DNA of 64,000 nucleotides, taken from a virus. This document shows, in pieces, positions 1-22,340 of the stretch (within the stretch, counting starts at the first letter, position 1; every line of letters starts with the position of its first letter). The position numbers and the translations under genes are program-made. The notes below the pieces were generated by a model, which worked only from the letters and a program-made list of their open reading frames with translations, ran no database searches and was not told the DNA's origin. The DNA lies in IMG/VR virus record IMGVR_UViG_3300045119_000200, positions 1 to 64,000 of that record. One strand, given 5' to 3'.

Positions 1-29
1 GCGTTAAAATATTTGTATTCTTTTTTCAT
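1..29 (-). CDS. 5' end of an early gene running off the window (MKKEYKYFN...)
   Basis: ATG at 27-29 within the AATCACTGTCATG motif shared with other early genes. Confidence 0.6.
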
Positions 30-45
30 GACAGTGATTAATTTA

Positions 46-237
46 TTAAACAATCGTATTTGTTAAAGCCATATAAGCGAAATGACTGATGAAAGTAATC
101 GTCATTATTACAACTGATATAAGCGTGTAAAAAAGGTATTTGTCAGCGGCAAACAGTTCGTCTTTGAAATGTTTATAAAACATGATGATTAACAAAACTG
201 AAATTAGAATCGATTCTATGATATAAACTGTTTCCAT
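46..237 (-). CDS. Small membrane protein (2 TM)
   Basis: 63 aa, two hydrophobic segments, abuts neighbouring ORF. Confidence 0.7.
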   Translation of the reverse strand: METVYIIESILISVLLIIMFYKHFKDELFAADKYLFYTLISVVIMTITFISHFAYMALTNTIV

Positions 238-545
238 TATTCGAGTGATTTAATTATTCTTTCTAAAAATGTAGATCTGGATTCGAAATCAGACGGTGAC
301 CAAAAACCAGATCCAGATAATGAACCAATTTTTGGTTTCACATTTGCTTTAAACGGAATAGATATTTTCCACAAATCTGGATCGGTCTTATCTATATTCG
401 AAAGCCTGTTTTTTAAATCTTGGAAAAGCTTTATGTTTAAATAACATTCTTCGATAGCGATCAAACAAAGAAATAATTGATCGTTATTTGATCGTTTTCT
501 TCTTAATGTTGATAACATTCTTTTATAAAAATCAATTGTTTCCAT
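237..545 (-). CDS. Early protein, paralog family A (LC...W..D..SR..FL)
   Basis: Shared motifs with 874-1233, 2028-2333, 3047-3385. Confidence 0.75.
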   Translation of the reverse strand: METIDFYKRMLSTLRRKRSNNDQLFLCLIAIEECYLNIKLFQDLKNRLSNIDKTDPDLWKISIPFKANVKPKIGSLSGSGFWSPSDFESRSTFLERIIKSLE

Positions 546-893
546 TTATAATAAATTTCTATGTTTATACACAAAATCAATAGCTTCAATTCGGTCAGCT
601 GGTTTATTATGTTCCGCTAACAATCTCATGTAGTCGAACGCTTTGTATTTTACGTCTTTATCAGAGGTAGCATTAACTACTTTTTCCAACGATCTCACCA
701 CAGGGTATATGTATGTATCAAAACGTGGATTATGTAGCGGATTTGCCCATACGTCCAAGTAATCATCCCAGACAGAATCATAAGGTCTGCTAATCGATTT
801 GTCTTGGTAATTTCCAATAACTACACCTCTGACATTATCCGTGACAGTGATTTCTATACAACCACCTAATTGATTAAGAGTTAATTTCTTCAT
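546..893 (-). CDS. Hypothetical early protein
   Basis: 115-aa ORF in a tightly packed operon. Confidence 0.7.
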   Translation of the reverse strand: MKKLTLNQLGGCIEITVTDNVRGVVIGNYQDKSISRPYDSVWDDYLDVWANPLHNPRFDTYIYPVVRSLEKVVNATSDKDVKYKAFDYMRLLAEHNKPADRIEAIDFVYKHRNLL

Positions 894-1233
894 GATTTTC
901 TAATTTTGTTAAGATCGATTGTAAAAACTTTGTTCTGTTATCATAGTCATATGTTGACCATAAGCCCCAACTGTCTTGATAAACTCTGAAAGGATTTCTG
1001 CCTATAGTGTGTTCTGTTGAGGTCTTATAACTTTCCGGATACCAAGCTTTCATATTTCTTACCTGAAGAGAGAAAAACCATCTGAATTCAGGTGAAATAT
1101 ATTCGCTTAAATTAATCCAAGGGCATAAATAAGCTGAAGTTTTATTCAGTTCTGCCATGTTCATTACTTTAATCAGTTTTTTAATGTCTTTAATCAACTG
1201 ATCTTTCGGTGCGGATAATACAAATTTGTTCAT
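874..1233 (-). CDS. Early protein, paralog family A
   Basis: AYLC...GLWSTYDYDNRTKFL. Confidence 0.75.
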   Translation of the reverse strand: MNKFVLSAPKDQLIKDIKKLIKVMNMAELNKTSAYLCPWINLSEYISPEFRWFFSLQVRNMKAWYPESYKTSTEHTIGRNPFRVYQDSWGLWSTYDYDNRTKFLQSILTKLENHEEINS

Positions 1234-1236
1234 GAC

Positions 1237-1392
1237 TTATTGATTATTTGTTAATAAAACAATGCCTGTTATAAAGCAAACGATAGCTATTACAAAGAAA
1301 TAGCACCAATACCATTTACCTCGTCTGATTAATTCTAATGCTATTAGAAAAAATATAATTGCGGATATGATCCAATAGGTTGATAAATTCAT
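1237..1392 (-). CDS. Small membrane protein (51 aa, not in ORF track)
   Basis: Manual translation MNLSTYWIISAIIFFLIALELIRRGKWYWCYFFVIAIVCFITGIVLLTNNQ fills the gap between genes. Confidence 0.65.
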   Translation of the reverse strand: MNLSTYWIISAIIFFLIALELIRRGKWYWCYFFVIAIVCFITGIVLLTNNQ

Positions 1393-1405
1393 GATGATTT
1401 AATTT

Positions 1406-2008
1406 TTATTTCCAAAGATTTTTATTATTTCTATAAAATACCCATGTTGCGGATTGGACCAACAACGGGCTTACATTCAGCTTTTCAGCTGCTTTCTGAT
1501 AACATGACGAAAAGAAATTGTATTGTAACACAGTCATATTGTTGTAATAGTCATCCGTAGAAATCTGGTTTGTAGCGATTGTTAAGGCGTGACGATCAAT
1601 TGTAATATTTCCACCGTTGTTTGGGTGAAGGATGTTTTTACAAAACGAAACAATCTTTTTACCGTTTAATATTTTATAAACGTCGCTTTCATCGTTAGCA
1701 AAATCTAAAATCGTTTGCGCTTTATCACAAAACTGTTTCATATGAGATCTTTCAGCACCTTTGGTCCTGATAAATAATTCAGCAATCCTTTTGTTGTTGT
1801 CCCAACGTTTTAATGGTGATAATGCTGATATTATCCCACAGGCCACGAACAATTGAACGTTATAAGTATTACTTAAATAAATAGCGAAGTTGTGTGCCTC
1901 CTTATACCAGTCGTATTTATCGGATTCGTCACATAGAAGAAACGTTCTGATAATGTTGTTAACGACTTTTGTCTGGGTTAATTGTTCGTGTTTGTAGGTA
2001 ATTTTCAT
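1406..2008 (-). CDS. Conserved phage protein, DUF7178-like (possible HhH glycosylase-like fold)
   Basis: WY..AH, ISALSP..W..N, L.G.K...F..NI, ITIDRHA and C-terminal Q.ATW pattern. Confidence 0.6.
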   Translation of the reverse strand: MKITYKHEQLTQTKVVNNIIRTFLLCDESDKYDWYKEAHNFAIYLSNTYNVQLFVACGIISALSPLKRWDNNKRIAELFIRTKGAERSHMKQFCDKAQTILDFANDESDVYKILNGKKIVSFCKNILHPNNGGNITIDRHALTIATNQISTDDYYNNMTVLQYNFFSSCYQKAAEKLNVSPLLVQSATWVFYRNNKNLWK

Positions 2009-2027
2009 GACAGTGATTGTTTATAAT

Positions 2028-2333
2028 TTATCCGTTTTCAATAACGTCTTCTTTCAGATCGTGTAAAAATTGTTTTCTTGATTGATAATCATAAGCACTC
2101 CAAACAGGTTTTAAATCTGTATTCGTTGTTTCTACGTTCGTGATCGTTGTTTCATATGACTTCGGTGAAATCTTTTTCAGTCTCTTTAAATTCCTTTGTA
2201 AGAAATAGTAAAAGTCACTATTGATATTTTTAGCAGTTGAGCATAAATATAGTGTATAACGTCCATCATATAATTCATCGAGTCTATTTTCAGCAGTTTC
2301 GATATCTTTGATTTGTTGATCTAATGTGTACAT
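2028..2333 (-). CDS. Early protein, paralog family A
   Basis: LYLC...PVWSAYDYQSRKQFL. Confidence 0.75.
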   Translation of the reverse strand: MYTLDQQIKDIETAENRLDELYDGRYTLYLCSTAKNINSDFYYFLQRNLKRLKKISPKSYETTITNVETTNTDLKPVWSAYDYQSRKQFLHDLKEDVIENG

Positions 2334-2380
2334 GACAGTGATTATTTAAAGTTTAATTTTTGATTTTGATTTTGATTGTA

Positions 2381-2411
2381 ATAATCCTGCTGCAATTAAC
2401 AACAGGATTAT
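2381..2411 (-). terminator. Hairpin, possible terminator or processing site
   Basis: ATAATCCTG...CAGGATTAT inverted repeat in an intergenic gap. Confidence 0.4.
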
Positions 2412-2437
2412 ATAAGTTGCGATTAACAGATACATAA

Positions 2438-3034
2438 TTATAATGTTTTATCAATTTGCTCTGTAAATATTGCTTTCTCAGGATCAGTGATGTACATACT
2501 GATAAATTCCCTGTGATCTTTTACATAATCCTTATGGATTTTGTAGTATTGGTTTGTCCCTGCGATTTGAGCAATGATTAATTCTTTTTCGAACAACCAT
2601 TCTTCTGGAAGCTTACTTGATTGTACTGATGCAACAATTGACTCAGATCCAACATCAAAACCACAATTACACATTACGTGTAAATAGTCATGCCATGCAC
2701 GGAACTTATCGTAAACCTCTGAGTCACCGAAGATTGTAGGGAAATTTGTTTTAACAACTTGAATTTTTCCAGTTTCATCAAAACGATTTTTCATGTTGGC
2801 GAACGCTGTTTTATAATCGCTGTCATCGAACTCGTCATGCTCTGTCATGGTAAACATTGCTTTGTTTTCTTCAAACCAAGTTTCAACAAAGATGTTTAAA
2901 CGTTGGCTAAATGGCTCAATCGTATGCAATTTAGATGCGTTTTTCATTTTCTCTTTAGATAACAGGTAGTTATCTACGATTGATAATTTCGCTGCAATAG
3001 CGGTTGCGGATGGTAAAATGTTTTTCGTTTCCAT
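2438..3034 (-). CDS. FRAWHD-motif protein, paralog 1 (putative metal-binding)
   Basis: IFGD..V...FRAWHD..H...GF...E; clearly similar to 3394-4011. Confidence 0.75.
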   Translation of the reverse strand: METKNILPSATAIAAKLSIVDNYLLSKEKMKNASKLHTIEPFSQRLNIFVETWFEENKAMFTMTEHDEFDDSDYKTAFANMKNRFDETGKIQVVKTNFPTIFGDSEVYDKFRAWHDYLHVMCNCGFDVGSESIVASVQSSKLPEEWLFEKELIIAQIAGTNQYYKIHKDYVKDHREFISMYITDPEKAIFTEQIDKTL

Positions 3035-3046
3035 AATGAATAATGT

Positions 3047-3385
3047 TTAAAGGTTTTTATTTTTGTTTAAGGTTTGTTCCAACTGTTCAATCCAAAGTTT
3101 TAAGTATTTTTCTCTGGTTGAAATTATATCTTCCGAAGCACGTCTACGTTGAATTGTATTAATAACTTCAACAGTTAACTCTGGGAATGCTATTTTAGTA
3201 TCATCAAAGTCCCAGTCCAATCCATCCGGCCCATCGTCTAAATAATGTATGTCCCATAATTTTGTAGGAAGTAATAAACAAAGACCATAGCCTTTTTCAA
3301 CATTTGCCAAAGCTTCTTTGTAAACTTCTAAACGAATTGTATCAGGTACTACTGAAAGAAGATTTTTTATATGTGTATTTTTCAT
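3047..3385 (-). CDS. Early protein, divergent member of paralog family A
   Basis: YGLC... and C-terminal R.KYL..WIEQLE. Confidence 0.65.
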   Translation of the reverse strand: MKNTHIKNLLSVVPDTIRLEVYKEALANVEKGYGLCLLLPTKLWDIHYLDDGPDGLDWDFDDTKIAFPELTVEVINTIQRRRASEDIISTREKYLKLWIEQLEQTLNKNKNL

Positions 3386-3393
3386 GACAGTGA

Positions 3394-4011
3394 TTAATTT
3401 TTACGTAAATCAATAAATCCTTTTTGTTGTCTCGTATGAATGGCTGTTACAGGATTCTGTAAATAGTCATAAGCAAACTTCCGCTGATCGATCAAGAACG
3501 CTTTATGCTGTCTGTAATATTGGTTTTGCCCTAATATTTCAGCTGTGATAAGTTGTTGTTCAAAGATCCAGTCTGACGGTAATTGATGGACCTGTGCGGT
3601 CCCGACTACAGACTCACCAGCAAAACCAAAGTCTTGGTTTAATAACACATGAGTTAAGTCATGCCATGCTCTGAAGATGTGATTATACACCGGATCACCG
3701 AAGATTGTACCTTCGCTTTCACCTGTCCAAATAACTATTTTTCCCGTTGCTGCATAATCGTTTTTCATTTTCTCAAAAGCCTGTTTTGGAGTCATTTCTG
3801 TAAAATAATCCACCTCAGAAAAGATAAATTTATCTTTGTGATCTGAATACCAACCTTTTAACCAATCGTTTAAACGCTGACTAAATGGCAGATCTTTTTT
3901 AAATCTGATAAAGTTCACACGCAAGTTTTCTTTTGCGTTTAAATATTGATCTGCAAATCCTAATTTGATTGCTATTTCGGCTAATACTGGGTTTGTTAAT
4001 GTTGTGTTCAT
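3394..4011 (-). CDS. FRAWHD-motif protein, paralog 2
   Basis: PFSQRLN, IFGD, FRAWHD, LP..W.FE, G.NQYY shared with 2438-3034. Confidence 0.75.
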   Translation of the reverse strand: MNTTLTNPVLAEIAIKLGFADQYLNAKENLRVNFIRFKKDLPFSQRLNDWLKGWYSDHKDKFIFSEVDYFTEMTPKQAFEKMKNDYAATGKIVIWTGESEGTIFGDPVYNHIFRAWHDLTHVLLNQDFGFAGESVVGTAQVHQLPSDWIFEQQLITAEILGQNQYYRQHKAFLIDQRKFAYDYLQNPVTAIHTRQQKGFIDLRKN

Positions 4012-4015
4012 GACT

Positions 4016-4228
4016 TTATAGATTTATGGTTTTTACTAATTTGAATGTTTCTTCTCTGTAGAAATTGGTAAATGTAAACACTTTAATTTGTGTTGCACCC
4101 TTTGATGGTTTGAACCAATCTAAACGGTTTTGTACCTTACGGAATGTTTTCGCATCCCTTACTATAGCGGAATCAAGCGATCCCAAAATTTCTTGTTCAC
4201 CTCTGTAGGCTCTGATAAAATAATCCAT
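4016..4228 (-). CDS. Hypothetical early protein
   Basis: Starts at the AATCACTGTC-ATG motif. Confidence 0.7.
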   Translation of the reverse strand: MDYFIRAYRGEQEILGSLDSAIVRDAKTFRKVQNRLDWFKPSKGATQIKVFTFTNFYREETFKLVKTINL

Positions 4229-4239
4229 GACAGTGATTT

Positions 4240-4765
4240 ATATTTGCTACTATTGCTGAGTTCGACTCTAAACGCTATAAACTTTTCTTTATCCTTTCGG
4301 ACGTTCAATCAATTACGATTTCTTCCGTAGTTTATCCGTTGGCAATAGCAATAGGTTTGTTTAAACAGTATATTGCTACGAATACGTTTGGGCACAATCC
4401 CCCTGATATATCCCCTACTTATTGGGTCATTCTCATATTATCGGTGTATTAATCCGGTTCCGTTAAATTCAATGAACTTGCAAGGCGATTATAACAATTG
4501 TTTTATATCTGTTTTCAGCTAAATTTGGCTTACTGTAGGATATTAAACAAAGATTTATAAAACTTAAACCTTTCCTGTTTACGCTTGCTTTAGGGGTTTG
4601 GTACGTGATCGCTGTACTTTAAAAATTGCTTTATCTGTTTTCGATAAATTGTAGTCTCTACTATAGGACAAAGCAATTTACTTTCCATTAAACGGGCTCG
4701 TTTCCCATTCCTAAAGTTTATATTAATGAACTCTTTTCTTACTGGTATTAACCAGTGTTTCAGTT
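4240..4765 (-). ncRNA. Candidate large structured non-coding RNA or 5' leader
   Basis: No credible ORF, many nested inverted repeats, directly downstream of a promoter at 4774-4781. Confidence 0.45.
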
Positions 4766-4773
4766 TGTTAAGG

Positions 4774-5495
4774 CAAAGATATGTAAAAGATTTTACACTC
4801 ACAAACAAAATTTAAAACTTTAACACTTTTTAACATTTGTTGGTTATAATTGTATGCTGTAGCCCTTATATTGCGAGGTCAAGCCAAAAACACTTTATTA
4901 TATTGCTATAATATACACACCTGTATCAAATACAACTCAATTAAGAATTGCGTTTCTCAACTCATACAAACCAGTCAAATTATGACAGTGATTGAAGTTT
5001 AGTTTTTAAATGATCGTCTATTCTTTGTCTACCTGATTAAGCAGTTTAGTACTTAATCAACGCTTTGAGCCTAAAGACCTATTTTTATAGTCGCTCAATC
5101 GACTTGTTTTTGTTGGGACAAATGTAGTAAAACATTTTGTTAAGTTCCAAATCTAAAAGTGTTAAAGTTTTGTTAAAGTTTCTAAAACCCCGTAACTGGT
5201 AGTGTTTCAGCCTTTACTTCTTTTAACTTGTTTTCATAAATCTTTGTTCTTTCATGCCCTTTAACACGTCGTCCTGATACTGTATCAATTAAGTTATATC
5301 TTACTGTTTGGACCTCGGTAACTGTATAGTATTGTTTAGAGGTGCAAGAGGATAAACCAAAAATAATAAGTGCGATTGCTAAAAAGAATCCCGCAAAGAT
5401 TGCTTTGTCTAATGTTTTCATAGTGTATATGTTTAAAGATCGTTTGTTCTGTTTTGTTGCAGCAAAGATATGTAATGAGAGTGATACAAAACAAG
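4774..5495 (-). promoter_or_regulatory. Three tandem leftward Bacteroidota sigmaA-type promoters (-7 boxes 4774-4781, 5119-5126, 5463-5470)
   Basis: Minus-strand TATCTTTG / TACATTTG / TATCTTTG with TTG/TTTG about 20 bp upstream (-33 element). Confidence 0.7.
5182..5421 (-). CDS. Lipoprotein
   Basis: Signal peptide with lipobox LSSC; directly after promoter 5463-5470. Confidence 0.75.
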   Translation of the reverse strand: MKTLDKAIFAGFFLAIALIIFGLSSCTSKQYYTVTEVQTVRYNLIDTVSGRRVKGHERTKIYENKLKEVKAETLPVTGF

Positions 5496-5634
5496 TGACA
5501 ATATGGCACGATATGTGACAACATGGTTCAAAGGTGCATGAATAGGGGAAATTGGTAATGTGTTAAAATTATGTTAAAGTATAATATGTGACAAAATGGC
5601 ACGATATAAATGAACTAATGTGACAGATAGTCAG
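5495..5634. repeat. Cluster of GTGACA-N3-TGGCAC-like quasi-palindromes
   Basis: Copies at 5495-5509, 5515-5529, 5588-5602, 5620-5634. Confidence 0.7.
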
Positions 5635-6197
5635 TTGAGCCCCGACCAAAGACAGACCAAACAAAATAAATAATTGAGCAAAACAATTGATTAATCAGTA
5701 AGCACACTAATAACATTTATATAACGAACGTTTGTTATTTGATTTTCCCACTGTAAAAAGATATGTTTCATTTTACCGGCCGGTCCGGTTGGGCTTATGT
5801 ATAAACGGTTGGGGAAATTTCAAACATCGGTTCTAATCGGCTTACAAAATTGTTAGTTTCATCTAACAAAATGTTTTTCGTCGAAGGGGAGTGGGTCGAA
5901 AAAAGTTGATTTCCTTTTGGCACTGGTGGGGGTCATTGTCTACATATACCCTAATCTCCCTAATTTTCTCAAATCGTATTTTGCTTAACCTTAAAAAATT
6001 TTTATAAAATTTACAACCTACCTCTGAACCAAACATCCATTTCTTGGGGTGACATTTCTCTCAAAAATCAATCTTCTCTATTCTTTAACCCAATCATACC
6101 AGACAACATATTCAAATCGAAAAATCCTACCCACGTCATCTAAATCAATTTGATCAACCAGTCATCCTGTAAAATAATTTACAAAAAGTAAAATATT

Positions 6198-6212
6198 TGG
6201 CACAGTGTTTGC
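6198..6212 (+). promoter_or_regulatory. sigma54-type -24/-12 motif
   Basis: TGGCAC-AGTGT-TTGC upstream of ORF 6372. Confidence 0.6.
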
Positions 6213-6371
6213 TCCATCATAAAACATGAGATGAACCAAAACCTCAAACATTAAATTTAAGGGGTAGCATTTCTCTCATACGTCAACTCAAATACATTTC
6301 TAATATATTCATACCGGAAAATAATTTGAATCGAAAATTTAAAGAAATGTCAACAAAACAATTAAAACAAA

Positions 6372-6656
6372 ATGGAACAATTAGCAAGAACAATTGAATT
6401 ACGTGGTTTGGGTGAACCAATCACAGCAACTGAAGTAAAGAGAACAGGAAAGGTTTGTATGTACTTACGATCAGATAATGTTTACGAAGTCTTCATCGTT
6501 AAAGTTGCCAAAGCAAAGAATTTATTCGGGAAGCAATATGAAGAAAGGGAAGTCTACCCAACCAATGAAGACTTTGGTTCTAATGCTTGGTGCTTTTCGA
6601 AAGAGATCGAACCGGCAGATAGACTTTTTAATAAATTGGTAAACGAAGGAAACTAA
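6372..6656 (+). CDS. Hypothetical phage protein
   Basis: 94 aa with YEVF...E.YP..EDFG..AW pattern; A-rich start context. Confidence 0.75.
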   Translation: MEQLARTIELRGLGEPITATEVKRTGKVCMYLRSDNVYEVFIVKVAKAKNLFGKQYEEREVYPTNEDFGSNAWCFSKEIEPADRLFNKLVNEGN

Positions 6657-6660
6657 TAAA

Positions 6661-6711
6661 TTGTTAGACGACTCTAACAATTAGCTTAAAAAATGTTAGA
6701 CGAGTCTAACA
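6661..6711. repeat. Tandem palindromes TGTTAG-N6-CTAACA (third copy 5850-5869)
   Basis: TTGTTAGACGACTCTAACAA and TGTTAGACGAGTCTAACA. Confidence 0.8.
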
Positions 6712-6774
6712 ATATAGGCAGACCAGCCAAAGAAAGTAAGCAAAGAAAACCCAGAATAGAAAGTATACACTTCG

Positions 6775-7000
6775 TGTAATAGGAATTAAATAGATTAGAT
6801 GATTATAATTTTAAATATTATACGGTAAGATTATAATATTACATATAGATTAATTGTATATACTTCTTCTTTAATTCAATACTTCAGAAGTTATAACATA
6901 CTATTCTTTATTATCGTAGAAGTATTATCTAATAACATCTATATACTATAATATTATATAATATAATAATATAAGATAATTATTCTATACATCAATTTGT
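6775..7000. other. Extremely AT-rich non-coding tract, candidate replication origin/unwinding element
   Basis: TA-rich low-complexity, ORF-free, next to palindromes. Confidence 0.4.
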
Positions 7001-7077
7001 ATTGCTTAATCAACCTCAACCCCTTTATTGATCAAACTTCCGGCCACTTCAGTAATGAAATTCGGAAGTAAAATATT

Positions 7078-7092
7078 TGGCACGGTCTTTGC
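7078..7092 (+). promoter_or_regulatory. sigma54-type -24/-12 motif
   Basis: TGGCAC-GGTCT-TTGC 25 bp upstream of ATG 7118; shares AAGTAAAATATTTGGCAC with the 6198 site. Confidence 0.62.
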
Positions 7093-7117
7093 TAAATTAA
7101 CATTATAAACTTTAAAA

Positions 7118-7306
7118 ATGGAAAACGAGATAAAATATCTTAATAAAGCGATCAAAGAAATCAGAGAAGGTAAGATTCATTATTCTCAAATGACATCTTG
7201 GTCAAAGAATAGAGATGAAGGTTATAATGATGGTTTAGAAGCAGCATCTTTGTATTTAGAAAAGCGAGTAAAGTATTTAAATAAAAGAATTAAAAATGGA
7301 AAATAA
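7118..7306 (+). CDS. Hypothetical protein
   Basis: First ORF of the rightward operon. Confidence 0.65.
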   Translation: MENEIKYLNKAIKEIREGKIHYSQMTSWSKNRDEGYNDGLEAASLYLEKRVKYLNKRIKNGK

Positions 7307-7505
7307 AATATTAAGACTCGGAAATGTAGCTGATGGCTACGGAGCATACGGAATAATACTTGATCAAATATTCTCTGTTGAGAAAGTTGAAGATAATAAA
7401 TTTCGACTACGAGAAGAATGTGACGCTTGGTATTCAAAAGATCTGACCAAAGCAGAATTACTTTTAATGATCGAAGAACTTAAAAACTGGGTAGAAGAAC
7501 AATGA
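7296..7505 (+). CDS. Hypothetical protein
   Basis: Overlap-coupled with both neighbours. Confidence 0.65.
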   Translation: MENKILRLGNVADGYGAYGIILDQIFSVEKVEDNKFRLREECDAWYSKDLTKAELLLMIEELKNWVEEQ

Positions 7506-8200
7506 AAAAATACATAGCATACTACAGAGTTTCCACAAAAGAACAAGGGAACTCCAACCTTGGTTTATCAGCACAACGACAATCTGTTCAACAGTTTACA
7601 TCCGACGGCCAATTAATTAAAGAATTCCAAGAAGTTGAATCCGGTCGTAAATCAAATAGACCAGTTCTTTTAAAAGCCATTGCTGAAGCAAATAAATTAA
7701 AAGCAACTTTAGTCATTGCTAAATTAGATCGTCTGGCAAGGAATGTTGAATTCGTTTATGCTTTAAAGAATTCCGGAGTAGATTTCATTTGCGCTGATAT
7801 GCCTGATGCAAATTCTTTAACTATTGGAATTATGGCGGTCCTTGCTGAGAATGAAGCTAAAACAACTGCTGAACGAACGAAATCTGCTTTGAATGTAATT
7901 CAGGACAAACTGTCACGTGGCGAAACACATATTTCAAAAACCGGACAAATTGTCACAAAGCTTGGTGGTAATCATAGAATTACTTCTGAAGAAAGAAATA
8001 AAGGATCGGAGATTCTAAAGAATAAAGCGAATAATAATCAAGACAATATTAAAGCTTTCGCTTTCATCAATGCTCTGGTAGAAGCCGGAGATAATTTTAA
8101 AATAATAACTGATAAACTTAATAACGCTGGATTTGTAACTTCCAGAGGAGGAAAGTTTTACGCAGCACAAACAAAAAGAGTTTATGAGCGATTTAAATAA
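7502..8200 (+). CDS. Serine recombinase (resolvase/invertase family)
   Basis: YYRVST (catalytic Ser), ESG...RP.L, KLDRLAR, E...ER motifs; C-terminal DNA-binding region. Confidence 0.95.
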   Translation: MKKYIAYYRVSTKEQGNSNLGLSAQRQSVQQFTSDGQLIKEFQEVESGRKSNRPVLLKAIAEANKLKATLVIAKLDRLARNVEFVYALKNSGVDFICADMPDANSLTIGIMAVLAENEAKTTAERTKSALNVIQDKLSRGETHISKTGQIVTKLGGNHRITSEERNKGSEILKNKANNNQDNIKAFAFINALVEAGDNFKIITDKLNNAGFVTSRGGKFYAAQTKRVYERFK

Positions 8201-8525
8201 AGAACCAATAGAGATCAAGGATCAAGAAGGAAAGATAATCGGATGGATTGATTTCGATGAATGGAATCTTGAAAAAGCTTGGTTGCAGAAGAGACAGGAT
8301 GAATGGTTGGAAGGATGTTTGTTCGGTTTCCCTGAAGCAACTGAAGAAGAGAAATATATGCGAGGTATCTCCGGAGTAATCACCAAAGAAAGAGGTTTGG
8401 TATTCTGGCATGACGATGGAAAGTTCTATGAGCCGGAAATCGAATACCCTGCATTGAAAATCCCTTTGACTGAAATAACTGAGAAATTAACAGTAATACG
8501 AGGGGCCACAAGCTTCGATTTTTAA
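8184..8525 (+). CDS. Hypothetical protein
   Basis: 113-aa ORF in operon. Confidence 0.65.
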   Translation: MSDLNKEPIEIKDQEGKIIGWIDFDEWNLEKAWLQKRQDEWLEGCLFGFPEATEEEKYMRGISGVITKERGLVFWHDDGKFYEPEIEYPALKIPLTEITEKLTVIRGATSFDF

Positions 8526-8526
8526 T

Positions 8527-8844
8527 ATGGGAGAAATAGCAGATTACTACAGAACTTGGGAGCAGGATGAAGATAGCTTCGTCGGACAAGAAAATAAAAT
8601 TCCAAGAGAAAAAATGGAGTCTATGTTCAATCCAAATTGGGTGACGTTACATGGACCTATTTGGATTACAGGCACTTTGAAAAGAATTCCGATACATAAC
8701 ATGACAACAAAACATATTCTTCATACAATACGCGCATGGTTAGGTTTAGGTAAAACAACTCCACCAGAAGGATGGTGTGGCGGAAAAGATATATGGCTTG
8801 ATTTATTAACAGAAGAATTATTAAGAAGGGATAAATTACGATGA
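8527..8844 (+). CDS. Hypothetical protein (MGEIAD.. type)
   Basis: I..M...HI...I...L..EL..R pattern seen in small phage proteins. Confidence 0.65.
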   Translation: MGEIADYYRTWEQDEDSFVGQENKIPREKMESMFNPNWVTLHGPIWITGTLKRIPIHNMTTKHILHTIRAWLGLGKTTPPEGWCGGKDIWLDLLTEELLRRDKLR

Positions 8845-9209
8845 TAGGATTAGGAATAACAAGAATAGTTCTAATTGTTGGAAATTATGCTTATAAATTT
8901 CCAACAATAATTTATGGGATGAAGAATTTTTTAAATGGGTGTTATTCAAATTGGGCTGAAAGAAAATTTAATAAAGATTTTAAATCAGCTAATTTTGAAG
9001 AAAATATGATTGATTATGTTGCGCCATCAATATTTTGCAGTTGGTTTGGTTTAATACAAATACAGAAAAGATGTGATGTATTAACAGAAGAACTATCTAA
9101 CGAAGAAAAAATATTTTTTAATCCCGTTAGTGGCGGTGATAATAAGAAAGAAAATTTTGGTTTTTATATGGGTAAAAAAGTATGTTTAGATTATGGACAA
9201 AATGTATAA
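8841..9209 (+). CDS. Minimal protein-kinase-like protein
   Basis: GxGxTR loop, AYK lysine, N..E, DNKKEN catalytic-loop-like, DYG. Confidence 0.55.
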   Translation: MIGLGITRIVLIVGNYAYKFPTIIYGMKNFLNGCYSNWAERKFNKDFKSANFEENMIDYVAPSIFCSWFGLIQIQKRCDVLTEELSNEEKIFFNPVSGGDNKKENFGFYMGKKVCLDYGQNV

Positions 9210-9387
9210 CACAACAGAAAAAGCGAACAACATAATTCATAAGTCCAGAGACTTCGGCACCAAAAGAGAATTGGCTATGGAACTGGGAATTTCTCGTCCT
9301 ACACTTGATACACGACTGGATGAATCAAGTAAGTGGAAGAAACTGGAAATCAAATGGATTGATAAACTATACAACGATTTAAAATGA
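9193..9387 (+). CDS. Helix-turn-helix DNA-binding protein
   Basis: KRELAMELGISRPTL HTH. Confidence 0.8.
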   Translation: MDKMYNTTEKANNIIHKSRDFGTKRELAMELGISRPTLDTRLDESSKWKKLEIKWIDKLYNDLK

Positions 9388-9824
9388 CACAACAGGAAAT
9401 TATACAAAGGATCTACGGAGAATATTATGAACATAATCATACGATGATTGATGAATGGGGAAGAATGAATGTAGAAAATGTTCGAACCAAATATGATGAT
9501 CAAAGCAAGGAATTCGAAATATTCTGTAGAGATCTTAGAATTAGAAAATTTGTTTGGGAAGGAATTACATATCTTCAACCTGAAGCATTATCTAATCTGG
9601 CTCCGGAACCGACTCCGCAGATGACTAAACAGGATTTGGAATTTATCGATCAAATAGCAATTCAAACAATGTTGTTTTATCTTCATCTTCAGCAGCCGGC
9701 ATCATTCAAAGATTCTCTCAAAGCCTCACGAGTTGCTTATCGTCAGGCTTTAGCTATGTGGGATGTCAAAACAAATGGTTTACAGGGCCTTGCAGACGAA
9801 GAAGGAATTAAAGTAATAGTCTAA
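9384..9824 (+). CDS. Hypothetical protein
   Basis: 146-aa coupled ORF. Confidence 0.65.
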   Translation: MTQQEIIQRIYGEYYEHNHTMIDEWGRMNVENVRTKYDDQSKEFEIFCRDLRIRKFVWEGITYLQPEALSNLAPEPTPQMTKQDLEFIDQIAIQTMLFYLHLQQPASFKDSLKASRVAYRQALAMWDVKTNGLQGLADEEGIKVIV

Positions 9825-9861
9825 ATTTTTTTGTATCTTTGCTTCAATAAAAGTTACAGAG

Positions 9862-10095
9862 ATGACTGAATCAAAAATAATCAAGATAAATTTAAAGAAT
9901 TTTGTCGAGGAATTGTTGATAGCGTTTTCATCAAATGATGAAGATTCAACAAAAGAACTTGACGAGAAATTCAAGCACTTTTATGCTTCGGAAACGGATG
10001 ATATGAAAGACAACGTGAAACATTACATCAAAGGCTGTAAGCTGGTTTCAGAGAATAAATGCCTTATAAAATACTTCGAACAATTTTCTATGTAA
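9862..10095 (+). CDS. Hypothetical protein
   Basis: Follows promoter at 9834. Confidence 0.6.
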   Translation: MTESKIIKINLKNFVEELLIAFSSNDEDSTKELDEKFKHFYASETDDMKDNVKHYIKGCKLVSENKCLIKYFEQFSM

Positions 10096-10148
10096 AATAT
10101 TATTCGTATATTTGCAAAAGTAATTTATAATTAAACAAATTTAAAAAT

Positions 10149-10688
10149 ATGAGAAGTTCACTTAAAGCATTGAGACCTGTAAATCTTAGTTTAGTTGGAG
10201 CAATGGACCCAGCAGCGATTGGAGGTGTATATCACAAAGTTAGAGAATTAGAAGACAGATATGAAAACAGTCTTAATGCTGCCGGAGTAAGTGTAGGATT
10301 GACAGATTTGACAGCTGCTAAGTGTGTGATTACAGTTAATCATCCATGGAAGATTTATGTATTCAATTTAACGACAGTTTTTGCAACGGGTACATATACG
10401 TTCTCCTTTGTTGAATCGGCACCTAATACAGAATCGGTTGTGGATGTTACAAGCATTGATGTAACACCTGCTACTGCCACAATAGCTGTCGCTGGTACAA
10501 GACAATTGGTTGTAGCGTTTACTCCAAGTGATGCATCATCTAATGCTGTCACTTATACATCTTCTGATGTAACAAAAGCCACTGTAAGCGCGTCAGGTTT
10601 AGTTACCGGAGTTGCTTCAGGTTCAGCTACAATTACAATTAGATCTGCAAATGGTAAAACAGATACAGTAGCGATTACAGTATCATAA
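10149..10688 (+). CDS. Virion protein with C-terminal bacterial Ig-like (Big_2) domain
   Basis: VTSIDVTP...P.DA....VTYTSSD...ATVSASGLVTGVASG.ATIT. Confidence 0.88.
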   Translation: MRSSLKALRPVNLSLVGAMDPAAIGGVYHKVRELEDRYENSLNAAGVSVGLTDLTAAKCVITVNHPWKIYVFNLTTVFATGTYTFSFVESAPNTESVVDVTSIDVTPATATIAVAGTRQLVVAFTPSDASSNAVTYTSSDVTKATVSASGLVTGVASGSATITIRSANGKTDTVAITVS

Positions 10689-10725
10689 CAAAATAGGTTT
10701 TGCCACCTCGCTTCTTCGGAAGCAT

Positions 10726-10797
10726 GCTCCGTTCATCTATCGGTTAGGATCTCAGGTTTTCGACCTGATCAGGCGAGTTCGATTCTCGCACGGAGTA
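10726..10797 (+). tRNA. tRNA-Glu(UUC)
   Basis: Acceptor GCTCCGT/ACGGAGT, anticodon arm TCAGG-TTTTCGA-CCTGA, T arm GCGAG-TTCGATT-CTCGC. Confidence 0.88.
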
Positions 10798-10840
10798 CAC
10801 ATTTTTTCATAAAATAGGTTTTTAAGATTAATACGGAAGG

Positions 10841-10869
10841 TGCCTCAGATTAAGTTCTGGGGCATTTTT
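10841..10869 (+). terminator. Intrinsic terminator
   Basis: TGCCTCAGA..TCTGGGGCA hairpin followed by T-run. Confidence 0.6.
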
Positions 10870-10895
10870 CGTATCTTTGTATTAAATAAAATAAA

Positions 10896-11447
10896 ATGAC
10901 ATTAGTGAATAATGGTTTACCTTATAATCGCAAAGGTCAGCCACTAAAGAAGATTCGGAAGTATCATAATGTGAGAAATACCAAACCTTTAGCTAAGACT
11001 GAGACAGAAAGGGAATATGATTTTCTAAAGTACATCAGAGTAGTTTTTAGATGGGCCACTGAGCACACTGGTTTATCAAGACCAGAGATTGAAGTAATTT
11101 TATATCTCTATTCCAAAGGAGTTTTTACCAAAGCTGAATTTGCGGACTATTATAAAACAATTGGTTTGACTACGAAAGCCAGATGGCAAAAATACATGGA
11201 TGATGGATGGATCAGAGAATGGAGAACCAGTAAACGGAATATGAAAGGGCTGTTTGATCTCACTAGTAAAGCAAAGATAGTATGCAGCAAAATGCATCAA
11301 ATGTGTGTTGGTGATATGGACATTCCGACATCACGAAGATCTAATCCAATGAATAGAAACAAGGATATTAAGATCAATGCACATTACACGAAATTGTTCA
11401 AGCAAATGAATGCTGAACGTAATAAAACAAAAGAGGAGGATGAATAA
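10896..11447 (+). CDS. Conserved phage protein, possible winged-helix regulator
   Basis: LS..EIEVILYL...FTK.EF...GWI..WR, MarR-like pattern. Confidence 0.55.
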   Translation: MTLVNNGLPYNRKGQPLKKIRKYHNVRNTKPLAKTETEREYDFLKYIRVVFRWATEHTGLSRPEIEVILYLYSKGVFTKAEFADYYKTIGLTTKARWQKYMDDGWIREWRTSKRNMKGLFDLTSKAKIVCSKMHQMCVGDMDIPTSRRSNPMNRNKDIKINAHYTKLFKQMNAERNKTKEEDE

Positions 11448-11462
11448 CACCCTCCTCTTTTT
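11431..11462. terminator. Bidirectional terminator
   Basis: AAGAGGAGG...CCTCCTCTTT between convergent genes. Confidence 0.75.
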
Positions 11463-12051
11463 ATTTTGAACCTTTGCTTAAATTACATTTAGCATGAGCC
11501 CATTGTACATTGTTTATTGAATTTAAACCACCTTTGATTAAAGGTATGATGTGGTCAAGATGTATTTTAGATTTATCTGACCAATCTAAAGGTTTGTTAC
11601 ATATTCCGCAAATTTCTTTTGGTAACAATCTTAAATTCCTTGCTGTGATCGTTCCATCTGATAATTTTTTTGATCTGGATCTTCGCTCACTTTTATAAAT
11701 TCTGTTTTTATCAGGATTTTTATCATGCCATTTTTTGTTTATTTTCGATCGTTTTTCAGGATTGTTTCTATTCCAAGTAGTTGCTCTTTCTAACGCTTTA
11801 CTATTATTTTTCGTTTTGTTTTGACAAATTCTACAATATGGATGATAACCAGATTTACGAGATTTATCTTTTGTAAATTCTCTTTGTGTTTTATGTTCTA
11901 AACATTTTTTACACTGAACTTTATCTTGGTCCTTTTTTCCTTCCGCCTTCACCGGCTCTCCCTCTGTTTGTTGAAGATTTGACAAATCTATTAACCGCAT
12001 GATCATAGTCTTTATTTTTGATATCCTGCCCTTTCTTTTTTGCTTCAGCAC
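11461..12051 (-). CDS. HNH (homing) endonuclease; start uncertain
   Basis: CxxC motifs, HLDHIIPL..GG.N...N....H..CN..K. Confidence 0.88.
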   Translation of the reverse strand: MLKQKRKGRISKIKTMIMRLIDLSNLQQTEGEPVKAEGKKDQDKVQCKKCLEHKTQREFTKDKSRKSGYHPYCRICQNKTKNNSKALERATTWNRNNPEKRSKINKKWHDKNPDKNRIYKSERRSRSKKLSDGTITARNLRLLPKEICGICNKPLDWSDKSKIHLDHIIPLIKGGLNSINNVQWAHAKCNLSKGSK

Positions 12052-12175
12052 GTTTCTGATTGGACTCAGTTCTTTTTTTCACCTGTTCCGGTCTTGCCCC
12101 AAGTTTTTTGTCATATTCTTGTTTTTTCTTTCTGGCTTCCGGATGGGTCTGATAATATTTTGTACTTGCTCCCAT
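11921..12175 (-). CDS. Small basic protein with degenerate HNH-like motif
   Basis: KDYDH....S.NR, Lys/Arg-rich; minus-strand promoter TAACTTTG at 12209-12216. Confidence 0.7.
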   Translation of the reverse strand: MGASTKYYQTHPEARKKKQEYDKKLGARPEQVKKRTESNQKRAEAKKKGQDIKNKDYDHAVNRFVKSSTNRGRAGEGGRKKGPR

Positions 12176-12329
12176 AAAATTTTAACTTAATTATTTTTCG
12201 TATCTTTGCAAAGTTACAAAAAATTTTAACACGATGGTTATATTGCAATAATTAACGTGTTAAAAATAGATAAATAAAAAGCAGATATGAATTTTTCGTA
12301 TCTTTGTAAAATAATAAATTTTTTAAATT

Positions 12330-13085
12330 ATGACAATTATTGAAACTGGTAGCAGTGACAAATTATTCAAAAAAGACGGATATAATTACCGATTGGGTAT
12401 GTATGAAGTGTATTACACTACAGAAGCAGATGGTGTTACGGTGCTAGTTGGTATCAGACATATTTACGGAGTTCATACTCTTGTTTCCCCTATTGAACCG
12501 GAAGATTATCAGGTTAATGGATCAACATATTCTAGTAACGATTTAAATTTGCTTGTTTCAGATTTGAGCGAAGTGTTAGGATATAATTTTGGAAACAGTG
12601 GTGGCGGAGGAACCATTCCTACATTCCAACAAGTATTAGAAGCCCAAGATGACATAAGAGCAACTCTAGCTGTTGATACAACAAGTTATGTAAGAGGATC
12701 TCAATTGATTGGAGATTTATTAGCATTGAATACTCCAAGTAATGGTAGTCAGAGTTCAATAAGCGCGTTAAATGTTACAGCATCAAGATCTTATGATCTT
12801 CTTGATAAGTCTGGAACATTAGCAATGATTGAGAAATACACAACTTATTATGAAACATTAACTTCTGATATTTGGAGTGATAATAATTCCCCTGTTTACA
12901 GATTTACATTTTCTGGATTAACTTCAGATCCTACTGTAATAGAAGGAGAACCTTTACCAGCAGATCTTATTTCAGCTAATATTGGTGACCCTAATAATAT
13001 TATGATAACAAGATTAAACTATGTTAGAAATGGTAATGGTGTATGGAATGGCTATGTTATAATAGAATATTATAAAATATCTTAA
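12330..13085 (+). CDS. Putative virion/tail-fibre-related protein
   Basis: Gly linker + PTFQQVL motif, LLDKSGTLA fibre-like repeat; own promoter and terminator. Confidence 0.5.
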   Translation: MTIIETGSSDKLFKKDGYNYRLGMYEVYYTTEADGVTVLVGIRHIYGVHTLVSPIEPEDYQVNGSTYSSNDLNLLVSDLSEVLGYNFGNSGGGGTIPTFQQVLEAQDDIRATLAVDTTSYVRGSQLIGDLLALNTPSNGSQSSISALNVTASRSYDLLDKSGTLAMIEKYTTYYETLTSDIWSDNNSPVYRFTFSGLTSDPTVIEGEPLPADLISANIGDPNNIMITRLNYVRNGNGVWNGYVIIEYYKIS

Positions 13086-13089
13086 CACT

Positions 13090-13119
13090 AATAGGTAGGT
13101 GTAAAAGCCTACCTATTTT
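13090..13119 (+). terminator. Intrinsic terminator
   Basis: AATAGGTAGG...CCTACCTATTT. Confidence 0.75.
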
Positions 13120-13131
13120 AATTTTATATAA

Positions 13132-13617
13132 ATGGATAATATAACAAAACAAAGAATAGAAAAACTTCATCCTAGTGTTAGGAATGAGATTTTACAAATA
13201 GTATCAGAATGCGATAAAGCATTGACAGGCAGAGCCAAAGTAAGAATCGCACAAGGAATGAGAACCTTTGCTGAACAAGATGCTTTGTATAAACAAAGAC
13301 CAAAAGTAACGAATGCTAAAGGTGGTCAAAGTATTCATAATTATGGATTAGCAGTAGACATCGTTTTAATTATTGATGGTAAAACAGCAAGTTGGGATAC
13401 AGCTAAAGATTGGGATAACGATAAAATATCCGATTGGATGGAAGTCGTAAAGATCTTTAAATCCCATGGTTGGAATTGGGGAGGCGATTGGAAATCATTC
13501 AAAGATCTTCCTCACTTTGAGAAAGCTGTATTTGTAGTAAAAGGAAAACAAATTAAAACCGATTGGAAAAATCTTAAAGATCTTCCAAGAGATAAAGACG
13601 GATACATAATTCAATAG
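13132..13617 (+). CDS. Endolysin, peptidase M15 (L-Ala-D-Glu endopeptidase, CwlK-like)
   Basis: R...EQ..LY, SIHNYGLAVD, WGGDW..F.D.PHFE. Confidence 0.93.
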   Translation: MDNITKQRIEKLHPSVRNEILQIVSECDKALTGRAKVRIAQGMRTFAEQDALYKQRPKVTNAKGGQSIHNYGLAVDIVLIIDGKTASWDTAKDWDNDKISDWMEVVKIFKSHGWNWGGDWKSFKDLPHFEKAVFVVKGKQIKTDWKNLKDLPRDKDGYIIQ

Positions 13618-13922
13618 TGATGATTAACAAAGAAGAGTTTTTAAAATTAATATTCTATTTCGCAGCAGCAGCCACAGCAAGCTTAATCAGATTCCTGAGA
13701 AATGAAAAGAAATCATTTTCAGTATTTATGGTGGAAATGCTTATGGGTGCTTCATTTGCCTTCTTTGTTGTTCCAGCAATTGTAGATTATTATGGATGGT
13801 CACTGTATTATGGTACAGGTATAACATGGTTACTTACAATGCTTTCAGAGAGTGTGTTAAGAAAAATAGAAAGTAGAATCAATAAAAAGATAGATGATGT
13901 CGCTGATAATATTGATAAATAG
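13617..13922 (+). CDS. Putative holin
   Basis: Three hydrophobic segments, charged C-tail, follows endolysin. Confidence 0.7.
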   Translation: MMINKEEFLKLIFYFAAAATASLIRFLRNEKKSFSVFMVEMLMGASFAFFVVPAIVDYYGWSLYYGTGITWLLTMLSESVLRKIESRINKKIDDVADNIDK

Positions 13923-14229
13923 TCTGATCTGTTTGATCACAGGAGTACTGTTCTATTTTTACATTCATGAGTTTAAAGATGAACTTACAAAAGGCAGAAC
14001 AATTACATATTTTATCTTAGGAGCCTACTTTATTTTTAGTGGGTTCTTTGGATTAAAAATGATACTATCAGAACCTTTTTCAATAAAGAGTTTTGATATT
14101 TATAATACTCTTCATATATTTGCGTTAATGCATCTATTGTCGAATATTGGATTTACAATATTTATTACTAATTCAATAAAATACGAGAAAAATGTTATTA
14201 ATGATAACAAAAATAAAAGCAGTGTTTAA
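13894..14229 (+). CDS. Second membrane protein of lysis cassette (holin/antiholin-like)
   Basis: Three TM segments, overlaps both neighbours. Confidence 0.55.
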   Translation: MMSLIILINSLICLITGVLFYFYIHEFKDELTKGRTITYFILGAYFIFSGFFGLKMILSEPFSIKSFDIYNTLHIFALMHLLSNIGFTIFITNSIKYEKNVINDNKNKSSV

Positions 14230-14923
14230 CTGGTGTAAAAGGAACATGAAAGCGATTGTTCCATCAATTCTTTTGATAGGAATGATAATCTTTCATTTCT
14301 TTTGGACTTATAATCCGCCTTTGGAATCTCCAATGGTAATAAGCCCTATAACCAAACCAGTTATTTTTAACAATGGTCAGAAGGGCCAAACTAAAGTTTA
14401 TACGCCACAAACGTCTTCTCCGGAAGCATCTGGTTTTTCAGAACAGTTTGTAAACGATACAATAAATAAGATAATGGGGATCAAGAATAAGGAAATCCTT
14501 GCTATCAATCAAATAAAAGGAAAATACGTTGATTCATTAGATTATGTCAAAGAAGAACGCGATGAACAAAACAGAGTCATCAAATACTACGAATCTAAAA
14601 ATGCAAATGGTCGTGTTATCGGGAGTGGCAAGACTGTGGATGGCAATACAATGGTTATTACGGGTGATCTCGACTTAATAAGCGCAGTTCGAAAAGCACC
14701 TAATAAAAAATCTCGTGACAGTTTGGTGTTTTATGACCCCGATCAGAGATTTACAGTTAACCAGTCGAAGGAGTTTACTTATGCCATTCCTGAGAAAACT
14801 GTCACCAAACGATGGACATTTGGGATCAGTGTTGGTGCCGGTGTAGTAGTTCCAAACTTTGATACAAAGAAAACAACCTTTGGTGGATACATTGGAGGAT
14901 CAGTAAATTATAACTTTAAATAA
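14192..14923 (+). CDS. Putative spanin-like protein
   Basis: N-terminal TM helix, C-terminal amphipathic beta-hairpin ending YNFK, last gene of lysis cassette. Confidence 0.5.
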   Translation: MLLMITKIKAVFNWCKRNMKAIVPSILLIGMIIFHFFWTYNPPLESPMVISPITKPVIFNNGQKGQTKVYTPQTSSPEASGFSEQFVNDTINKIMGIKNKEILAINQIKGKYVDSLDYVKEERDEQNRVIKYYESKNANGRVIGSGKTVDGNTMVITGDLDLISAVRKAPNKKSRDSLVFYDPDQRFTVNQSKEFTYAIPEKTVTKRWTFGISVGAGVVVPNFDTKKTTFGGYIGGSVNYNFK

Positions 14924-14929
14924 TAAAGA

Positions 14930-16033: not shown

Positions 16034-16082
16034 AAAATGCATCACTCTAAATTTTTCGTATTTTTGTATAAATTTAAATAAA

Positions 16083-16337: not shown

Positions 16338-16338
16338 T

Positions 16339-16920: not shown

Positions 16921-16921
16921 C

Positions 16922-19780: not shown

Positions 19781-19782
19781 AA

Positions 19783-22299: not shown

Positions 22300-22340
22300 A
22301 ATTACCCATAGAAAAAATTTAGTATATTTGCATAATCAAA

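Follow-up and report, generated by a model that had tools for sequence, protein, structure and literature searches.

What is a sequence that ends, identically each time, in the start codons of several unrelated phage genes? The question is raised by a minus-strand 13-mer, AATCACTGTCATG, in an uncultured phage genome of which we analyzed the 64,000-nucleotide stretch comprising bases 1 to 64000 (the window) of the 72,812-base IMG/VR record IMGVR_UViG_3300045119_000200; the genome as a circle measures 72,780 bp. An earlier note on this DNA had proposed that the 13-mer is a recombination joint for single-gene cassettes, an RNA operator or private translation signal, or an mRNA processing site. 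The comparisons reported here indicate that it is the local form of a lineage-wide, strand-polar 8-mer, CACTRTCA, which probably marks sites at which one strand of the phage DNA is nicked.

The genome under study (G000) groups with marine flavobacterial podophages. The G000 major capsid protein shares 53% identity with those of Cellulophaga phages phi38:1 and Calle_1 (Pervagoviridae), 46% with that of Maribacter phage Panino, and 60 to 67% with those of uncultured IMG/VR contigs. The virion genes (terminase, portal, capsid, crAss-muzzle-like protein, and a 2838-amino-acid [aa] protein) lie on the plus strand at about 6.4 to 43.6 kb. On the minus strand, a block that runs from about 5.4 kb through the origin to about 44 kb starts with genes for small unknown proteins and continues with those for replication and nucleotide metabolism. 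No close relative of G000 or of its early region turned up in phage and protein searches: a blastn search of the early region against "phages" gave a single match at chance level, the DUF7178 protein matched only L126, a 160-kb phage without the motif, the SSB-like protein had zero relatives, and an alignment of the 205- and 198-aa proteins matched only L317, whose record shows no motif enrichment.

Over-representation and strand polarity of CACTRTCA

An exact scan found the five minus-strand copies of AATCACTGTCATG where the earlier note had placed them (Table 1), and, when up to two mismatches are allowed, the window holds 11 matches to the 13-mer against 2.31 expected, a number reached in 0 of 100 shuffles. 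The terminal ATG of each of the five copies opens an open reading frame (ORF), with an in-frame stop codon 12 to 36 nucleotides (nt) upstream, and a sixth copy ending in ATA is non-coding, as had been reported. It also holds that no virion or replication gene starts with the motif (0 of 24 late and 0 of 20 replication starts listed). The dinucleotide TC at -2/-1 precedes 0 of these 24 late and 1 of these 20 replication starts, and it precedes 12 of the 19 first early genes, where motif-headed genes and genes with an [AG]TCATG start are counted together. Two more start-flush copies, both TATCACTGTCATG, lie beyond the window.

All 10-mers and all 8-mers of each genome were ranked by over-representation, with no prior pattern. 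The top 10-mer of G000 was ATCACTGTCA (13 copies on the minus strand, 0 on the plus strand, 0.07 expected), and its top 8-mer was CACTGTCA (14:0 by strand, 0.53 expected). The top 8-mer was CACTATCA in G001, a complete 76.6-kb uncultured relative (15:3), and in phi38:1 (15:1, with the 10-mer form AACACTATCA present 10 times), and CACTGTCA or CACTATCA in Calle_1 (18:1) and Panino (24:2). Expected counts of the top word were 0.5 to 1.2 in the five genomes, an enrichment on one strand of about 10- to 30-fold, and the only comparable competing words in the ranking were those of the tRNA T arm. The motif is thus kept in all five genomes despite capsid proteins just 46 to 67% identical to that of G000. 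In total, G000 carries 18 minus-strand and 2 plus-strand copies of CACTRTCA (20 sites).

The strand preference persists where the genes run the other way. In the late regions, whose genes lie on the opposite strand, all 23 copies of the five genomes fall on the motif strand and none on the gene-sense strand; phi38:1 and Calle_1 are close kin, so this split counts as four lineages, 21:0. The early and replication blocks split 70:11 and hold 70 of the 93 motif-strand sites. What is conserved is thus not a start context but the 8-mer CACTRTCA, which keeps almost entirely to one strand in five genomes and lies within ORFs and antisense to late genes. In the long minus-strand ORFs of G001, TCACTATCA encodes 7 of 12 Ser-Leu-Ser tripeptides where codon use predicts 0.06, and therefore selection acts on the nucleotides and not on the protein. 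Two late sites differ between Calle_1 and phi38:1 (about 95% identical) by one substitution inside the 8-mer, and therefore point mutation creates and removes sites, with their number maintained.

Enrichment was absent from G002 (0:0 in 63 kb), an Elemovirus phage (1:1), three Pachyviridae phages and MW202828 (1 to 4 copies per strand), and the L126 and L317 records, which are unrelated phages with homologs of G000 early genes. G003 was ambiguous (8:4). Around the capsid gene, 34 short loci had 2 versus 2 copies, and 13 fragment records had 0 to 3 copies each. A 14-mer scan of viral_contigs gave single matches only among the matches listed, and the 14 loci from a two-copy pattern scan of metagenome_contigs were all unrelated tandem or palindromic repeats; those in L319, L321, L322, and L331 are palindromic tandem units of the form CACTGTCAT-N-ATGACAGTG. 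G003 (L170 to L172) carries AGGAGGATAT six times on one strand, a Shine-Dalgarno-like word that is unexpected in phages of its group.

The motif is private to the phage and is not a start context of host genes. Five Flavobacteriaceae genomes of 3.2 to 4.1 Mb, none a known host, have 34 to 92 copies per strand (about 1 per 50 kb), and the core count is 1 to 2.3 times that of the reversed control. This low frequency therefore speaks against both a host start context and a Chi-like host signal. A Chi-like role was accordingly rejected, there being no strong over-representation in these host-type chromosomes. A Christiangramia genome has four and three same-strand copies of CACTATCA within 3.9 kb and 1.8 kb (G009:C12:777970-781835 and 738430-740225), which may represent a related element.

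Setting of the copies in G000 and its relatives

The motif-strand copies of G000 are concentrated in the early region, with 9 of them within about 6.3 kb. In the earliest gene block, 7 of the 10 intergene gaps of at least 8 nt hold the motif flush with an ATG, and overall 7 of the 18 motif-strand copies adjoin a start. The setting changes from relative to relative. Most early-strand copies of phi38:1 and Calle_1 read TAA-A(0-3)-CACTATCAAA, directly past a stop codon, and lie 0 to about 60 nt ahead of the next start, once ahead of a tRNA-Glu gene. Two Panino copies overlap a start as in G000 (CACTATCATG), three lie 2 to 4 nt before a start, and the remainder are inside ORFs, as are nearly all copies in G001.

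Contig ends at the T/R bond

One public DNA run, kept as contigs (Logan) and probably the source sample, contains the window; no RNA run was among those listed as containing it. On positions 1 to 20000, record 1 of this run ends at 32, record 2 covers 4 to 17017, and record 3 starts at 16992. The end at 32 falls on bond 33/32 of the minus-strand site at 29-36 (CACT/GTCA, the slash marking the bond), and the end at 17017 falls on bond 17018/17017 of the minus-strand site at 17014-17021 (CACT/ATCA). The contigs are 23,656, 17,014, and 32,190 nt long and tile the circle with overlaps of 29, 26, and 25 nt. From these lengths, with the offset of record 1 fixed by two internal repeats, a third junction is deduced at 49156/49157, within the plus-strand site at 49153-49160 (CACT/ATCA). 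The three contigs meet at motif sites only. In motif orientation, the downstream contig starts at R every time and the upstream contig extends 25 to 29 nt beyond the bond, and no exact repeats longer than 23 nt were found at the junctions. The IMG/VR record also ends on bond 33/32, and its reverse complement begins GTCATGAAAA; its first 32 bases are identical to its last 32, and it is assigned to the IMG/VR class of direct terminal repeats. The linear Panino record starts with the complement of ...CTCACT, a CACT half-site at the record end that may be due to chance.

These ends suggest a nick in the phage DNA. CACT/RTCA would be recognized by a nicking activity, specified by the phage and specific for site and strand, that produces "localized single-strand interruptions," presumably through a phage enzyme. 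Cleavage would separate T from R on the coding strand of the early genes, so that R becomes a 5' end. DNA 5' ends would then be fixed at R, a nick elsewhere being turned into a break on shearing and then end-repaired; end repair would fix the 5' side and leave the other side ragged, as the contigs of this one, non-independent run suggest. In G000, a longer form, ATCACTGTCAT, occupies the short gaps ahead of the earliest genes, and its final two bases double as the start codon's first two, so that the presumed nick lies 3 nt before the A of the ATG.

Comparison with known phage nicks

T5 has been known to carry site-specific nicks since the 1960s, and such nicks were later found in Pseudomonas phages of the phiKMV-like and LUZ24-like types; two reports still describe the function of these nicks as unknown (PMC3517423 and PMC11780129). 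The closest parallel to G000 is Pseudomonas phage tf, for which excerpts of the original paper describe 14 mapped nicks, all on the top strand within TACT/RTGMC and 11 of them in the genome's left half, and state that its relatives LUZ24 and PaP3 mainly have the A variant where tf has G (PMC3517423). The annotated tf record puts 12 of the 14 nicks in the early block and shows sci13 and sci14 antisense in late genes, and sci1, sci4, and sci11 fall exactly where the start codons of tf_04, tf_15, and tf_41 begin. The same 8-mer scan applied to tf returned the mapped nick word, ACTGTGAC, as the top word (12:0), which serves as a positive control for the scan. In phage Rembedalsseter, nanopore depth on one strand drops to zero at 13 WACTRTGAC sites, and this motif is enriched in 61 related genomes.

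The motif of G000 has much in common with those of tf, the LUZ24-like phages, and Rembedalsseter. Each is a short, asymmetric word on one strand only, with 9 to 14 copies per genome in that group. As in tf, the sites crowd the early half, and most of them sit on the strand that encodes the early genes, a few being antisense within late genes; several overlap start codons (sci1, sci4, and sci11 in tf); and related phages differ at the R position. The ACT/RT core is shared, and the contig ends of G000 fall on the same bond. The two differ in their flanks (TACTRTGMC versus CACTRTCA) and in the position of the start codon, which is the RTG inside the motif in tf, whereas the ATG of G000 starts 3 nt beyond the bond. 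Of the sites in Rembedalsseter's group, 12% are outside coding sequence and its authors see no enrichment either way, whereas many sites of G000 and phi38:1 are in gene gaps. The nicks of the tf group were measured by primer extension, ligase-sensitive bands, and nanopore depth, whereas those of G000 are deduced from contigs and sequence.

The nicks of T5 and phiKMV-like phages are likewise site-specific interruptions of one strand only, according to the same excerpts, but their consensus sequences differ (R/GCGCRGG and CGACxxxxxCCTA/CTCCGG), and phiKMV-like phages have far fewer sites (PMC3517423). In T5, major sites are cut in most molecules and minor ones rarely, as described there (PMC3517423), a pattern that could correspond to the 3 broken and 17 bridged sites of G000. 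The literature search found no mention of nicks or of CACTRTCA for Pervagoviridae-type flavobacterial phages, and a word search gave unrelated papers among the matches listed; "nick" does not occur in PMC8776804, "promoter" does not occur in PMC5335546, and neither "nick" nor "motif" occurs in PMC11590407.

Several findings weigh against a nick site. Pfam and PHROG scans of about 70 proteins gave no nickase candidate; to our knowledge, the nicking enzyme of the tf group has likewise not been identified. A weak PD-(D/E)XK match (48899-49534; 21.4 bits against a cut-off of 22) was rejected since it is also present in the motif-free G002. One G000 gene alone was detected in each of the four motif-bearing relatives and missing from both motif-free ones compared; its product is a dNTP diphosphohydrolase/NT5C protein, which is not a nuclease. 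The contigs break at 3 of the 20 sites and bridge the other 17, and one of the three is a rare other-strand site; moreover, the ends come from contigs, not reads, of one run that is probably the assembly's own sample, and the third junction is arithmetic. Relatives at similar capsid-protein distance (G002, the fragments G012 to G014, and the Elemovirus phage) have no motif, and tf belongs to an unrelated phage family with a host of another phylum, BLAST finding no shared protein. Finally, about 10 of the 13 early-strand sites of phi38:1 are intergenic, right after a stop codon, and all gene-proximal copies of G000 (7 of 7) are flush with an ATG, a placement that a pure DNA-nick model fails to predict and that would suit an expression signal.

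Alternative explanations

Such a signal could act at the transcript level on the early strand, as a phage promoter or start site for leaderless or nearly leaderless mRNAs, or as an RNA operator or cleavage site for a phage protein. The ATG-flush copies in the gaps of the earliest block and the phi38:1 and Calle_1 sites between a stop codon and the next start, one of them before a tRNA gene, are in its favor. The core may resemble the CACTATA of T7/SP6-type promoters. The T4 RegA translational operator and the RegB cleavage of early mRNA offer a precedent in a phage-private short sequence at or near the start codons of many early genes; these act on RNA and occur in mRNA leaders only, whereas the G000 word follows one DNA strand across the genome and is also present in ORFs and antisense to late genes. 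The RNA operator or private translation signal of the earlier note does not fit the distribution, with 7 of 18 copies at starts and the relatives' copies in ORFs, antisense, or 0 to 60 nt away, and a translation-initiation signal was rejected on the variable position of the copies relative to starts in G000 and its relatives. In the 16S part of 13 Flavobacteriaceae rRNA loci, neither UGAYAGUG nor the 7-nt GAYAGUG was found, matches being confined to 23S and 5S; no antisense partner was found in the genome, the best same-strand duplex (-14.6 kcal/mol) being within the shuffle range; and no shared RNA fold was seen at the seven start-flush copies (fold z-scores of -0.5 to +1.7). The proposed mRNA processing site fared no better: the leader has one Pistol ribozyme, and the motif copies show no ribozyme-like feature. 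If the motif were read by ribosomes or on early mRNA, it should not persist antisense in late genes, on one strand only, as the 23 antisense and 0 sense copies of the late regions do. Most copies in G001 and Panino are inside ORFs, no RNA polymerase was recognized, and the contig ends at T/R are a property of DNA. The 2838-aa protein has no Pfam, PHROG, or PDB sequence match; it contains the string HEAAH, and the RNA-polymerase motif DFDxD was not seen. In favor of a transcript-level signal, a bioRxiv preprint on the crAss-like phage phi14:2 reports that no common upstream motif was detectable for its virion-RNA-polymerase early transcripts, which leaves room for such signals in Bacteroidota phages. 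Taken together, a transcript-level signal is unlikely.

Among DNA-level explanations, a strand-polar signal without a standing nick, such as lagging-strand priming on the strand displaced by rolling-circle replication or an orientation signal for packaging or ejection, would account for strand exclusivity regardless of gene direction and for sites that turn over while their number is kept. The 8 sites in the late block of Panino, its limits set by eye, are also more even than chance (coefficient of variation 0.39, p = 0.004). Spacing over whole genomes is no more regular than random in 4 of 4 genomes, the primase/helicase also occurs in the motif-free G002 (52% identity), and contig ends exactly at T/R would be left unexplained, so that we rate this signal as rather improbable. 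Chi is strongly enriched in the host chromosome, and the EcoP15I sites of T7 show orientation bias without over-representation. Both resemble CACTRTCA as short words that are strand-polar in a phage genome; Chi differs in its host frequency from the roughly 1 copy per 50 kb per strand in the five Flavobacteriaceae genomes, and EcoP15I differs from the roughly 10- to 30-fold one-strand enrichment. The recombination joint of the earlier note, with copies as crossover points for the duplication, swap, and loss of single genes, stands only as far as it places the motif at the DNA level. Paralog families (the 205/198-aa pair and the 119/101/102-aa group) do occupy consecutive motif-bounded segments, a Calle_1 spacer between two tandem paralogs that correspond to one phi38:1 gene carries the motif, and three of five further early starts could be decayed copies (see below). 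Nicks are recombinogenic, and recombination at them is possible as a side effect. Yet in the small sample given by aligned relatives, neither of the two indels that separate Calle_1 from phi38:1 in the early region has its breakpoint at the motif; they break inside paralogous coding sequence or 78 to 198 nt from a copy. At L303/L302 (Calle_1 39050-39800), two tandem paralogs with TAAAAACACTATCAAAACTATG between them face a single hybrid gene in phi38:1, which is an unequal crossover within coding homology. The DUF7178 homologs in L126 and Panino and the homolog of the 205-aa gene in the L317 record are not headed by the motif, the nearby serine recombinase gene is absent from the motif-bearing Panino and present in the motif-free G002, and the source-run contigs, which drop rare variants, have no rearranged joints over 1 to 20000. 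The ORF-internal and late antisense copies would also go unexplained, and cassette joints are thus very improbable. T4-type PeSL repeats and integron attC sites, which also lie as repeats at the 5' boundary of small early genes in a variable region, are longer and form stem-loops, whereas the G000 motif has no fold and the two tested indels are not at it. The breaks might lastly have nothing to do with nicks, if 29-36 were a genome end with a short terminal repeat or the ends were a sequencing or assembly artifact, and the motif a frozen accident of shared descent. The terminal-repeat class of the record and the small share of sites that break contigs agree with this, but chance is very unlikely to have put three junctions on one and the same bond of a single 8-mer (an estimate of about 3e-4 per end, from 20 sites in 72,780 bases), and the motif is the top 8-mer even between phages with such divergent capsid proteins; we give this account hardly any weight. 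The nick site is therefore the reading that we prefer, its role in packaging, entry, early expression, or recombination being a matter of conjecture.

Motif copies and neighboring features

Table 1. Motif copies in G000 and other features mentioned in the text (window positions unless marked "genome")
Feature	Position	Strand	Setting or description
AATCACTGTCATG	27-39	-	ATG at 29-27 opens 68-aa ORF
AATCACTGTCACG	840-852	-	ACG variant, 14 codons into 115-aa ORF, reads I-T-V-T
AATCACTGTCATG	2006-2018	-	Opens 200-aa DUF7178 gene
AATCACTGTCATG	2331-2343	-	Opens 101-aa ORF with paralogs of 119 and 102 aa
AATCACTGTCATG	3383-3395	-	Opens 112-aa ORF; stop codon of the upstream gene overlaps first motif bases
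AATCACTGTCATG	4226-4238	-	Opens 70-aa ORF, first gene past 953-nt non-coding leader
AATCACTGTCATA	4981-4993	-	Non-coding, ATA copy, 34 nt after Pistol ribozyme
CACTATCA	17014-17021	-	Antisense, terminase region
CACTGTCA	28535-28542	-	Antisense, 1236-aa crAss-muzzle-like virion gene
CACTATCA	35385-35392	-	Antisense, 2838-aa gene
AATCACTGTCATA	38583-38595	-	Antisense, 2838-aa gene
CACTATCA	46125-46132	-	Inside minus-strand ORF, replication block
CACTATCA	49153-49160	+	One of just two other-strand copies
TATCACTGTCATG	53973-53985	-	Inside DNA polymerase gene, in frame (G-I-T-V-M)
CACTATCA	58132-58139	-	Inside ribonucleotide reductase gene
CACTATCA	61185-61192	+	Second other-strand copy
Motif copy	genome ~64832-64842		Inside primase gene
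TATCACTGTCATG	genome 70773-70785		Opens 151-aa ORF
TATCACTGTCATG	genome 71957-71969		Opens 69-aa ORF
Non-coding stretch	4239-4980	-	About 740 nt, between the ATA copy and the first motif-headed gene
Pistol ribozyme RF02679	5027-5104	-	Full length, in early-operon leader
crAss-muzzle-like gene	27681-31391	+	PF25731
2838-aa gene	34924-43440	+	Virion gene
409-aa gene	58833-60062	-	Thymidylate-synthase-like
480-aa gene	61750-63192	-	dATP/dGTP diphosphohydrolase N-domain and NT5C-like part
Phosphatase-like gene	genome 70320-70775	-	Motif-headed early gene

The copies at 4981-4993 and 38583-38595 have 18 nt in common (CAATCACTGTCATAATTT), and the ACG variant at 840-852 may be a former start. Five early genes on the minus strand start with [AG]TCATG without the full motif (window 893, 1233, 1392, and 4011; genome 72559). 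Three of these starts read AATCATG or AATCATCATG and could be decayed motif copies; AATCATG could have arisen from AATCACTGTCATG by slippage between the two TCA triplets.

The Pistol self-cleaving ribozyme scores 57.4 bits against a gathering score of 34.5 and follows a TAnnTTTG-type promoter-like sequence near 5125. It was the sole match in an Rfam scan of 1 to 7000 (E cut-off 1), and none was found in G001, G002, phi38:1 (1-40000), Calle_1 (20001-40000), or Panino (1-20000). The non-coding stretch that follows the ATA copy has a promoter-like TATCTTTG near 4775 to 4782 and no Rfam match at E values up to 1. The early region of phi38:1 has a tmRNA gene (L175, 26803-27164), and the phi14:2 study describes very abundant, long non-coding early RNAs.

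The 480-aa protein is the product of the co-occurring gene named above, absent from G002 and the Elemovirus phage; together with the 409-aa protein, it may hint at modified DNA bases. The phosphatase-like early gene beyond the window encodes a Cys-based dual-specificity or tyrosine phosphatase-like protein (HCQHGQGRTS; several PTP Pfam families).

Implications

The ATG-flush setting of the motif in G000 may possibly reflect economy of space in gaps of 8 to 19 nt, a role of the nick in early expression, or gene duplication driven by nicks. It is quite improbable, though of interest, that the nicks are working parts of early expression in a host phylum without Shine-Dalgarno initiation. In that case, a standing break of the non-template strand 3 nt before the AUG of each earliest gene would let the entering DNA offer ready-opened loading points to RNA polymerase and would yield near-leaderless messages without promoters, and the same breaks would seed the duplication and exchange of single genes. 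Such a mechanism would give a function to the 50-year-old puzzle of phage nicks.

If CACTRTCA is a nick site, as we consider probable, database records such as this one can owe their short "terminal repeat" to a nick site and not to a genome end. Phage nicks would then reach marine Bacteroidota phages, the laboratory model phi38:1 included, and the shared ACT/RT core would hint at a common type of enzyme. The unusually tight tie to the start codons of the earliest genes would make these phages a test system for the role of nicks in gene expression or gene shuffling.

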